This document shows positions 27,472 through 46,693 of a stretch of DNA of 55,008 nt, piece by piece. Each line of letters begins with the position of its first letter. Position 1 is the first letter of the stretch. Under the pieces are notes generated by a model. That model was not told the DNA's origin. It did no database searches and worked only from the letters and a program-made list of their open reading frames with translations. Both the position numbers and the translations under genes were made by a program. This DNA is from a virus (Duplodnaviria; Heunggongvirae; Uroviricota; Caudoviricetes): the IMG/VR virus record IMGVR_UViG_3300045988_134234, positions 1-55,008 of that record, one strand, 5' to 3'.

Positions 27472-28835
27472 TAGTCATCCTCCGGCTGGTCTATCGCAAT
27501 CTCGTCATCCACAGCATCAAAACCGGTATCCCCCGCGTCATAATCACCGTAGATATCAGCCGTGGCGGAAGGGTCTATATTCAGGTCTTCATCATTGGCC
27601 TCAAATTCACCGGCTTTACGTTCTCCGTTCCGGTCGTAATCCCCCATCCCAAGCCTATCAACGATTTTCGCTACTTCAGCCCGGCGTTGTGCAAGCCATT
27701 GTGGGAGTCCAGCTTGTTGCTCGGCAAACTGCTTCGCCTCTTTATCCAGTTGCTCATCATCAACATCGTTAACGTCAGAAACCGGAGGCTCCAGAAGTGA
27801 GATCGCTTTTGCCGCTCGTGCCGCCAGGATAGCCGGGACACTGACGCCCTGCCGCTCGATATATTCAGCAACACCTATATCATCCAGCTCCTCGCGCTCA
27901 CGCATACGTATAGCGGCGGCGATAACTCTGGCGGCGCGTGCGTCAGCGCCAATGCGATACTCAATCTCCTTGCCACGCTGCTCGGCTTGTAGGCGGGCAA
28001 TCGCCAGTTTTTCTCTGGCCTCAGCCTCCCTGAATGCCTGCTGACGCGCGCCCTGCGCAAGTTTTTCATCCCCCTGGCGTAGCTTCTGCTCGTTCTGATA
28101 GATGGCTGCCAGCCTGGTGATAAAGTCATTCATGTAGTAGGCCGCATCGCTGATCAGTCCGAGAAGACGCTGCCCTGGGTGCATCCCCTCTGGCTGTGTA
28201 TCACCGAGGGCGTCAATCTCTTCCTGTAGTCGCTCCGCTTCCTGGTCAACGATAGCCTGATACTGAATTGCTCGTTCCTGCGCCATCTGTATCGCAAGTC
28301 GTAAATGTTCAGTCGCGCCGTTCTTCATCATCTCACGGGCGACGTTGGTGGCTGGCAAAGTGGCGCTTTGAGCTGATGAATCAGGGATCATTTGCAATGA
28401 TCCCTTGTTTCGTTGGGCTTTTTCGCTGCTTTTAGGGATCATTTCTCCAATTTCATCACAAAATGATCCCTTCACATCCTTGTGTATCTTGCTGTTATTG
28501 CTTGACTTTTCTTTGTGATCCGCATTTTGTTTTTGCGGCATGGCGCGGAACCGTCCACCAGCTAACGATTTGTCAGTTTTTGTAAATTCTGTGCTTTTAT
28601 CAGCCTTTTTTTGCTCTTTTTTTGAGCCGGTGGCGCAGCTTTTTGCGCGCTGTTTTGTACTTTTCCCGGCAGCCTTAGCTTTCGCCTTAACCTCATTTTT
28701 TTTCATATTGAGATGCTTTCTGGCGGTGTTAAAGCTGAGGTCATGCTGCTCGCAATATTCTTTTATGGTGATCCCGGTTTCTTCTCTTAACTCCAGGAAC
28801 TTAGCTCGATGCGCTTCCCAGTTAATTAACGTCAT
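27471..28835 (-). CDS. pacA: terminase small subunit (PacA-like) containing pac-like GATC cluster
   Basis: N-terminal HTH-like (ITIKEYCEQHDLSFNTARKHL), Lys-rich region, acidic C-terminus; overlaps pacB start. Confidence 0.6.
   Translation of the reverse strand: MTLINWEAHRAKFLELREETGITIKEYCEQHDLSFNTARKHLNMKKNEVKAKAKAAGKSTKQRAKSCATGSKKEQKKADKSTEFTKTDKSLAGGRFRAMPQKQNADHKEKSSNNSKIHKDVKGSFCDEIGEMIPKSSEKAQRNKGSLQMIPDSSAQSATLPATNVAREMMKNGATEHLRLAIQMAQERAIQYQAIVDQEAERLQEEIDALGDTQPEGMHPGQRLLGLISDAAYYMNDFITRLAAIYQNEQKLRQGDEKLAQGARQQAFREAEAREKLAIARLQAEQRGKEIEYRIGADARAARVIAAAIRMREREELDDIGVAEYIERQGVSVPAILAARAAKAISLLEPPVSDVNDVDDEQLDKEAKQFAEQQAGLPQWLAQRRAEVAKIVDRLGMGDYDRNGERKAGEFEANDEDLNIDPSATADIYGDYDAGDTGFDAVDDEIAIDQPEDD
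28383..28520. promoter_or_regulatory. pac-like cluster of five GATC-containing heptamers (GGGATCA/TGATCCC)
   Basis: GATC at about 28386, 28399, 28437, 28465, 28516 arranged as inverted pairs within pacA codons about 105-150. Confidence 0.5.
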
Positions 28836-29224
28836 AGGGAAGCCTCACGTTTTTTCACAGCGGCGTTCCATAGCTGGTTAGTCATCGCCACCAACTGACG
28901 CTGCTCCTTTCGTAATTGAGCTTCTATCTTTCGGTTGGTGTTTTTCACCAACAGCCGACCGAATTCAGGAGTGCGCCCGCGCACCTTGAACTGGTATCCA
29001 TTCAGGCCATGTAACCAATATTTCCGGGGGTATACGCGGTCGTCTATTTCGCAAATGGCACGACTGGAACGAACAAAAAAACGTATGATGTTATTTACGT
29101 TTACGCGCGACACATGAAGGTGAGGATATTGTGCTTTTGCACGGCTGGTGATTTCGGTGACCGTCAGATAGCAGTCAGCCCTGATCATGATATCCGCTAT
29201 TTCGGCGCTACTGATTTGCTCCAT
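28832..29224 (-). CDS. hypothetical protein immediately upstream of pacA (Lpa-like position)
   Basis: 130 aa; operator palindrome directly upstream. Confidence 0.35.
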   Translation of the reverse strand: MEQISSAEIADIMIRADCYLTVTEITSRAKAQYPHLHVSRVNVNNIIRFFVRSSRAICEIDDRVYPRKYWLHGLNGYQFKVRGRTPEFGRLLVKNTNRKIEAQLRKEQRQLVAMTNQLWNAAVKKREASL

Positions 29225-46497: not shown

Positions 46498-46669
46498 CAG
46501 ATAGTTCCGTGAAAAATCTATCTACCGTATAAATCTATGCCAGTGGATTTATACACCCAAAAGCCGCTACTCAGCGGCTTTTGCTTTTTTTGGCAGTCGC
46601 TACCGAAGCAGTGACCGCGATCCTACTCGATCACGTGCCGTCGGATCAACAGTGTATAAAAACACACTG

Positions 46670-46693
46670 TGTTAGAAAATTAAGCTAGCTTTT
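46670..46693. promoter_or_regulatory. operator-like motif TGTTAGAAAATTAAGCTAGC
   Basis: In the 200-bp gap upstream of the 46497 start. Confidence 0.45.

Follow-up and report, generated by a model that had tools for sequence, protein, structure and literature searches.

The question raised by this locus is whether a cluster of Dam sites (GATC) inside a small-terminase gene forms part of the pac site at which a D6-like plasmid prophage would start to package its DNA and, if so, whether that site is read as the pac site of phage P1 is read or with a different specificity. The locus lies in 55,008 nt of viral DNA (Caudoviricetes; IMG/VR record IMGVR_UViG_3300045988_134234), this whole stretch being called the window here, and within it in the homolog of pacA, the gene for the small or recognition subunit of the P1/D6-type pacase. 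The cluster is a family of short repeats which is conserved at the DNA level, lies in the part of pacA equivalent to that which holds the pac site in P1, and differs in element sequence from that of P1. By analogy with P1 and from the sequence comparisons given below we consider it probable, at about three chances in four, that the array is the PacA-recognition part of a P1-type, Dam-sensitive pac site of altered specificity, belonging to the D6 supergroup as a whole; binding by PacA, cleavage, control by Dam and the position of the cut are what we infer from the P1 case.

P1 pac provides the frame for the comparison. It occupies 161-162 bp in pacA and consists of seven TGATCA/G hexamers arranged as four plus three (HEX4 and HEX3), the cut lying centrally and an integration host factor (IHF) site being included; Dam methylation governs its cleavage (Sternberg and Coulby, summarised in PMC10028697; NC_005856). 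Synonymous recoding of the P1 elements is described in PMC10028697. An earlier interpretation of the window, made from its letters without searches (the sequence-only reading), had described P1 pac correctly as a Dam-sensitive hexamer cluster inside pacA.

The array and its elements

That the array lies inside a pacA gene, as had been proposed, is confirmed by the product of that gene, which is 74% identical in amino acids to PacA of phage D6 (77% in nucleotides), shows a weak but recognisable relation to P1 PacA (~20% identity, E value 8e-9 by BLASTP) and matches the terminase family PHROG 1711 (phrog_1711, E value 2.6e-166). In an AlphaFold model of PacA residues 6-42 form a three-helix domain, residues 47-159 a disordered linker (predicted local distance difference test score, pLDDT, below 50) and the remainder long helices. 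The array spans pacA nt 313-453 (codons 105-151), downstream of the predicted N-terminal domain, and since its DNA codes for the predicted disordered linker it sits where the protein would tolerate almost any sequence. Two properties of a P1-type pac site are thus found here, namely several short GATC-bearing repeats (four exact 10-mers and one degenerate copy) and a location inside pacA after the N-terminal domain.

The elements are called E1 to E5 in the order of the gene (Table 1). Five copies of GGGATCA/TGATCCC had been claimed, and four of these are exact, each embedded in the 10-mer AGGGATCATT, while the fifth, E1, is a degenerate copy, GCGGATCACA, the core of which (28516-28522) reads TGATCCG on the + strand and CGGATCA on the coding strand. 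The 10-mer has four non-overlapping copies within 89 bp and no others in the 55-kb window, and no copy with one mismatch and the GG flank was found elsewhere in it. On the coding strand the orientations run E1 >, E2 >, E3 <, E4 >, E5 <, and the description of the array as two inverted pairs plus one holds: E4 and E5 (28383-28405) make a palindrome with 10-bp arms and a 3-bp spacer, and E2 and E3 (28434-28471) have 11-bp arms 16 bp apart, or 18 bp between the 10-mers.

It might be asked whether the array is simply a chance cluster of Dam sites without function. The count of GATCs would allow this, in that the window holds 198 of them against 215 +/- 15 expected and is not GATC-rich overall, and in that five GATCs within 139 bp, the densest GATC cluster of the window, arise somewhere in about 20% of random 55-kb sequences. 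A raised GATC density had been put forward as a check on the array, and as a test it is weak, the density being not significant (P ~0.2), so it was replaced by tests on the 10-mer and on conservation. Of 300 third-order Markov simulations none (0/300) yielded a 10-mer present four times within 100 bp, and the array is conserved across lineages whose proteins are 25-65% divergent; the likelihood of a functionless accident seems negligible.

Conservation of the elements as DNA

Close relatives are represented by a set of 25 unique pacA genes of the D6-like type (taken from IMG/VR, D6 and the window), all of 1365 nt and free of indels, which make up three deep lineages with 72-75% identity between them. 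GATCs stand at pacA nt 63, 316, 368, 396, 434 and 447 in nearly all 25, other GATCs being variable. When the window, D6 and L026 are compared column by column over the linker-coding nt 145-460, no change is seen at any of the 20 GATC columns or at 35 of the 40 columns that make up the flanked 8-mers, as against 45% invariant columns in the linker overall, a result matched in 0 of 20,000 permutations (P < 5e-5). Variation across the 25 sequences affects 5 of 30 columns in the element cores, compared with 192 of 286 linker columns outside them (Fisher P 1e-7).

The elements are not all alike in how far they are shared. E5 is the most conserved element of the family, its 10-mer being identical in 24 of the 25 D6-like sequences and an aligned element being present in all lineages down to 44% PacA identity; E4 is limited to the clade of the window, D6, L026 and L032. 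Two of the D6-like sequences, L025 and L030 (pacA at 1501-2865), have each lost one Dam site through a single T-to-C change, E2 having become GGAGACCATT in one and E3 AATGACCCCC in the other, and from these natural losses it appears that the array tolerates the loss of one element. A 23.6-kb D6-like contig, L029 (IMGVR_UViG_2537562191_000021), starts within pacA, its first base being the one that follows the GATC of E1 (L029 1-60), a single anecdote that could stem from an accident of assembly or mark a true end of the DNA.

Wider relatives were obtained by protein search at PacA identities of 67, 55, 47, 44 and 33-35%, their sources being Escherichia fergusonii, Klebsiella, Raoultella, Enterobacter and metagenomes, and the DNA of ten was examined; the linker-coding part of each holds 4 to 8 GATCs. 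Pooling 13 PacA lineages from 98% to 33% identity gives 76 GATCs in linkers and 34 elsewhere in pacA. The oriented consensus of the former is R-G-G-GATC-W-T-T (5' side: G 47 and A 22 at −3, G 59 at −2, G 71 at −1; 3' side: A 59 and T 16 at +1, T 64 at +2, T 56 at +3; each out of 76), and the latter are without such flanks. A GG flank is present at 55/76 linker sites, compared with 5/34 of the other pacA sites (P 2e-8) and 17/190 GATCs of the window outside pacA. The suggestion that the element differs from that of P1, and so would fit an altered packaging specificity, is supported by these 5' GG and 3' WTT flanks across the D6 supergroup.

Selection could conceivably act on short linker peptides (KGS, MIP, DH), the DNA repeats being a by-product, and it is the case that M/K-I-P and G-S recur at fixed columns of the protein alignment. 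The same DNA motif is nevertheless coded in four ways in three frames, as G-D-H (GGN GAT CAY, frame 0), as G-S-F (GGA TCA TT, frame 1), as M/K-I-P (ATG ATC CC, frame 2, in the opposite orientation) and as G-I-I, the last in L033, which at the E2 column has GGG ATC ATT where GGA TCA TTT is found elsewhere, and so carries the same DNA one base out of register. Third-position bases of the motif are also kept through changes of amino acid. The wobble G before GATC persists through replacements at E4 (AAG, GAG and CAG for K, E and Q) and at E1, where the window, D6 and L026 all have GGATCA while the codon before it differs (GCG, TCG or GAG, for A, S or E), and Gly-to-Arg changes (GGA to AGA) retain the GATC. 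The isoleucine of the motif is always ATC, in 14/14 lineages at E3 and 12/12 at E5, against 32% elsewhere in these genes. The linker is, moreover, a predicted disordered region that shows little conservation otherwise, and an origin of the pattern in peptide selection is barely plausible.

A scan of synonymous identity, defined as the share of pairs with the same amino acid in which the codon also agrees, has a mean of 0.485 over the gene and places E3 (0.89), E2 (0.84) and E5 (0.83) within the top seven peaks of pacA. Coding in several frames, retention of wobble bases, the fixed ATC and these synonymous peaks together indicate that the constraint acts on the DNA, and the comparison shows the elements to be under DNA-level selection across the whole D6 supergroup.

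Arrangement of the elements and the case for secondary structure

The spacing of the convergent pair E2/E3 is 28 bp from GATC to GATC and is kept in relatives down to 44% identity, the sites standing at nt 368/396 in the window, D6 and L026, at 380/408 in five lineages and at 371/399 in L038; in L033 the distance is 27 bp. Neighbouring elements in the family are frequently 12-15 bp apart, as they are in P1. Two clusters are found in the lineages at 44-57% identity, the first around nt 160-240 (typically > > < or > <) and the second around nt 380-500 (typically > > < ... <), the inner elements of the two being some 170-200 bp apart, a distance of about 100 bp in the 33-35% lineages. The clade of the window, D6, L026 and L032 has instead E1, E4 and a GGG ATC AC in the codons for G-I-T of the N-terminal domain, which is called E0; other clades write G-I-T as GGC ATC or GGA ATT, with no GATC, so that E0 is found only in clades without an upstream cluster. 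E0 is a possible outlying member of the site, its membership being uncertain and the evidence for it weak.

Inverted pairs might also work through secondary structure, as hairpins in the mRNA or cruciforms in the DNA that control translation, mRNA stability or the entry of a nuclease. The RNA of the window folds here with z = -3.9 relative to shuffles and forms two perfect stems, one of 10 and one of 12 bp, the corresponding DNA hairpins have z = -4.3 to -4.4, and the constancy of the E2/E3 spacing in many lineages would suit such a role. In D6, however, E4 and E5 pair over only 7 bp (z -2.0) and E2/E3 has a mismatch, and in the 55% clade the forward copies tend to GATCA and the reverse ones to GATCT, which breaks the stem. 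E4 and E1 exist in some clades only, single unpaired copies are equally conserved, and compensatory changes are absent, the motif itself being fixed. A structural function as the reason for the array is accordingly very unlikely. Rfam gave only a sub-threshold microRNA match (23 bits as against a gathering score of 75), which is meaningless here.

Comparison with P1, D6 and other systems

The likeness to P1 pac is one of plan. Both arrays lie inside pacA just past the N-terminal domain, are built of repeats that each contain a Dam site and have frequent spacings of 11-15 bp, and both belong to systems with homologous pacA and pacB, the same gene order and a Dam-family methylase in the lineage. 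In P1 the hexamer GATCs are at pacA nt 195, 202, 214, 229, 325, 337 and 348, the hexamers spanning nt 195-351 with distances of 7, 12, 15, 12 and 11 bp. The elements themselves differ, that of P1 being the symmetric TGATCA/G and that of the D6 type the asymmetric R-G-G-GATC-W-T-T used in both orientations; the base before GATC is always T in P1 and is G in 71/76 of the D6-type sites. P1 further has its four plus three hexamers around a mapped cut, whereas the window has one stretch of five elements with two convergent pairs, and P1 has an annotated IHF site, none being evident in the window.

With D6 itself (AY753669, MF356679) the agreement is close, the five GATCs at pacA nt 316, 368, 396, 434 and 447 and that at nt 63 being present in a gene of the same length and synteny. 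In D6 three of the five elements are poorer copies (GGAGATCATT, AGGGATCTTC, TCGGATCATG), the window having four identical 10-mers and a perfect 23-bp palindrome, and the window is a sister lineage of D6. A pac feature is annotated in neither D6 record (rox is annotated in both and cix sites in one), and full-text literature searches gave no description of a D6 pac site, although a prior description is possible. D6 encodes a Dam-family methylase (PF02086, E value 2e-56), of which the closest complete relative of the window has an 80% identical copy; a search of the window for this gene found none, the window stopping short of that region of the element.

Two virome contigs of about 86 kb, L050 and L051, encode PacA proteins of P1 size (401-404 amino acids) that are 29-31% identical to that of the window, and their linkers carry TGATCA, at nt 187, 204 and 330 in L050 (pacA 1489-2703) and at nt 175 and 192 in L051 (pacA 1501-2706). 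They form a lineage between the D6 and P1 types, with TGATCA elements in a 2 + 1 arrangement. Together with the D6-type motif they show that the PacA family has at least two types of element on a common plan.

Placement of a pac site inside the gene of the small terminase that recognises it is also seen in P22 (gene 3), SPP1 (gene 1) and Sf6. The pac sites of these phages are not known to be made up of repeated Dam sites, nor are their small terminases known to share sequence relationship with PacA.

Clustered GATCs are classical targets of SeqA and of Dam-dependent regulation, and so the array could be a set of Dam/SeqA-sensitive or other protein sites that regulate expression or timing, for example transcription of pacA and pacB, and not the start of packaging. 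Conservation at the DNA level implies a factor that reads DNA and leaves its identity unspecified, and a terminator-like hairpin was scored antisense to pacA at 28383-28405, where the E4/E5 palindrome is followed on the + strand by TGTTTCGTTG. Terminator-like hits in the region are nevertheless at chance level (2 found as against 1.9 expected), a promoter scan, likewise at chance level, gave no promoter-like site beside the array, the specific flanks GG...WTT exceed what Dam or SeqA read, and in P1, the sole characterised homologous system, an array of just this kind within pacA serves as pac. A purely regulatory array therefore seems unlikely.

Several observations do weigh against a pac site of the P1 kind. 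The upstream cluster is missing in the clade of the window, D6, L026 and L032, and with it two arms around a cut are not evident in the window. No match to the IHF consensus WATCAANNNNTTR with one mismatch or fewer occurs in the first 560 nt of the window pacA. The alignment of the PacA linker with that of P1 is too weak for positional homology of single elements, and the density of GATCs alone, as given above, is of a degree that random sequence can reach. Set beside the multi-frame motif and its conservation, these points leave recognition of the array by PacA as the probable reading at the strength given at the outset.

In the mechanism proposed, the helix-turn-helix-like N-terminal domain of PacA would, by analogy with P1, bind several asymmetric 10-bp copies of R-G-G-GATC-W-T-T, the bound copies being in both orientations and inside a stretch of about 140 bp that belongs to pacA itself. 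PacA and PacB, probably with a host DNA-bending protein, would then cut nearby, as their P1 counterparts do, and so start headful packaging. With a Dam site in each element, methylation of the DNA would be expected to govern binding or cutting, as in P1, and the two G residues 5' of GATC (T in P1) plus the WTT tail would give a packaging specificity unlike that of P1. That a pac array could be kept while the surrounding protein drifts would be explained by its being coded in a disordered and sequence-tolerant linker.

Constrained islands without GATC

Two further islands of synonymous constraint that contain no GATC are found in the linker, and in relatives with two clusters they lie between these. 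Island 1 has the strongest synonymous constraint of pacA (1.00 as against 0.485 gene-wide); its Thr codon is always ACA and its Asp codon always GAC in 12 lineages, and replacements among F, L and I keep the TT. It is absent in the 33-35% lineages. On the + strand it contains TTGTCAGT, an 8-mer that in P1 spans the annotated cut positions (L003 2804-2811; cuts 2805-2814), a match that was found post hoc and in which one base varies among lineages. Island 1 is a candidate for the centre of the site, be it the cut region or the site of a factor.

Island 2, between E1 and E2, has a synonymous score of 0.87, and the third-position A of its I/L/V codon is invariant in 14 lineages. In some relatives it comes close to the IHF site of P1: at its alignment column P1 has AAACAAAGAGTTA, which is an annotated IHF site, and L038 has AAACAATGTGTTA. 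The copy of the window has three mismatches to the IHF consensus, and scattered hits with one mismatch in relatives are at about chance level. It is a candidate site for a host factor, and both islands are to be taken as leads rather than findings.

A more extended scheme can be drawn from this, in which the family holds two orthogonal classes of Dam-site-based pac, one with TGATCA (P1, L050 and L051) and one with the asymmetric GGGATCWTT (the D6 supergroup, to 33% PacA identity), and in which a D6-type site would also need the two islands (28570-28589 and 28485-28499) as its cut centre and host-factor site. We put this forward tentatively, as a proposal with somewhat less than an even chance of being right.

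Table 1. Elements of the array, constrained islands and pacase genes in the window
Feature	Position in window	Strand	GATC start in window (pacA nt; codon)	Sequence and coding
E5	28383..28392	+	28386 (447; 149)	exact AGGGATCATT; coding strand AATGATCCCT, Q-M-I-P, codons 148-151
E4	28396..28405	-	28399 (434; 145)	exact AGGGATCATT on coding strand; K-G-S-L
E3	28434..28443	+	28437 (396; 132)	exact AGGGATCATT; coding strand AATGATCCCT, E-M-I-P
E2	28462..28471	-	28465 (368; 123)	exact AGGGATCATT on coding strand; K-G-S-F
E1	28514..28523	-	28517 (316; 106)	degenerate copy GCGGATCACA on coding strand; A-D-H
E0, possible outlier	28767..28776 (pacA nt 61-68)	-		CGGGATCACC on coding strand; G-I-T of N-terminal domain
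Island 1, non-GATC	28570..28589 (pacA codons ~83-89)	-		GAA TTT ACA AAA ACT GAC AA, GAATTTACAAAAACTGACAA; synonymous constraint
Island 2, non-GATC	28485..28499 (pacA codons 113-117)	-		AAT AAC AGC AAG ATA, AATAACAGCAAGATA; between E1 and E2
pacA homolog, 454 amino acids	27471..28835	-		open reading frame; small/recognition subunit of P1/D6-type pacase
pacB homolog, 502 amino acids	25963..27471	-		open reading frame; large terminase / nuclease-ATPase subunit

Gene context and further observations

The start of the pacB homolog overlaps the stop of pacA, and a 130-amino-acid open reading frame (28832-29224) lies directly upstream of pacA. The gene order lpa-pacA-pacB-c1-tyrosine recombinase is that of D6 and P1, the window encodes an Lpa late-promoter activator domain (PF25716), and homologs of the C1-like repressor, the tyrosine recombinase, DarA, DarB and DdrB are at their D6/P1 positions. 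PacB matches the terminase large subunit family phrog_2 (E value 3.8e-41), and a pacA 99.5% identical to that of the window is found in 94-kb Escherichia marmotae plasmids. D6-type PacA and PacB, the synteny and a plasmid of about 90 kb in relatives are all as in a D6-like plasmid prophage of the P1 supergroup, and from the PacA/PacB matches and the neighbouring genes the window is taken to be part of such an element.

Pfam-A gave no family match for PacA or PacB of the window at E <= 0.001, and so, despite PHROG terminase matches for both, the P1/D6 pacase subunits seem to be without a Pfam model. No solved structure was matched by sequence to the window protein. Scans of species-representative genomes for PacA relatives found none, nor did a scan of viral contigs with the Klebsiella PacA as query.

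Many database entries for PacA are truncated at the N-terminus (P0011, P0021, P0023, P0024), and P0011, with 326 amino acids and 310 member sequences, has a length that would put its start near an ATG inside E3; such truncations may reflect frameshifts in A-runs of the linker or contig breaks in the region. A further peak of synonymous constraint (0.80 as against 0.485) is at 27894-27908 (pacA codons 310-314, CGT ATG CGT GAG CGC), in the most conserved segment of the PacA protein, and could be codon bias or an embedded signal, for example an internal pacB promoter as predicted in P1. The second-densest GATC cluster of the window (46619-46670, with sites at 46619, 46629 and 46644) is followed by the palindrome CAGTGT-ATAAAAA-CACACTG in a 200-bp gap between a head-protease-like gene and a lytic replication (repL-like) gene, and may be an origin or a promoter control region.

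Implications

Among packaging sites under the control of methylation P1 pac is the textbook example, and P1 phagemid and transduction tools are built on it. Nothing is overturned by the present results, in that a specialist would expect a P1-like pac in a relative of P1. The array is a clean example of how a DNA signal may be retained within a coding region, by way of a disordered linker and in any available frame. If it is the pac site proposed, it would give widespread phage-plasmids of Escherichia, Salmonella and Klebsiella a testable candidate pac, and would offer a natural comparison for which bases PacA reads together with a second packaging signal possibly orthogonal to that of P1. Should the reading of two classes also prove true, P1-type and D6-type phage-plasmids that share a host would each leave the DNA of the other unpackaged, and the 10-mer array could serve as an independent phagemid packaging signal.

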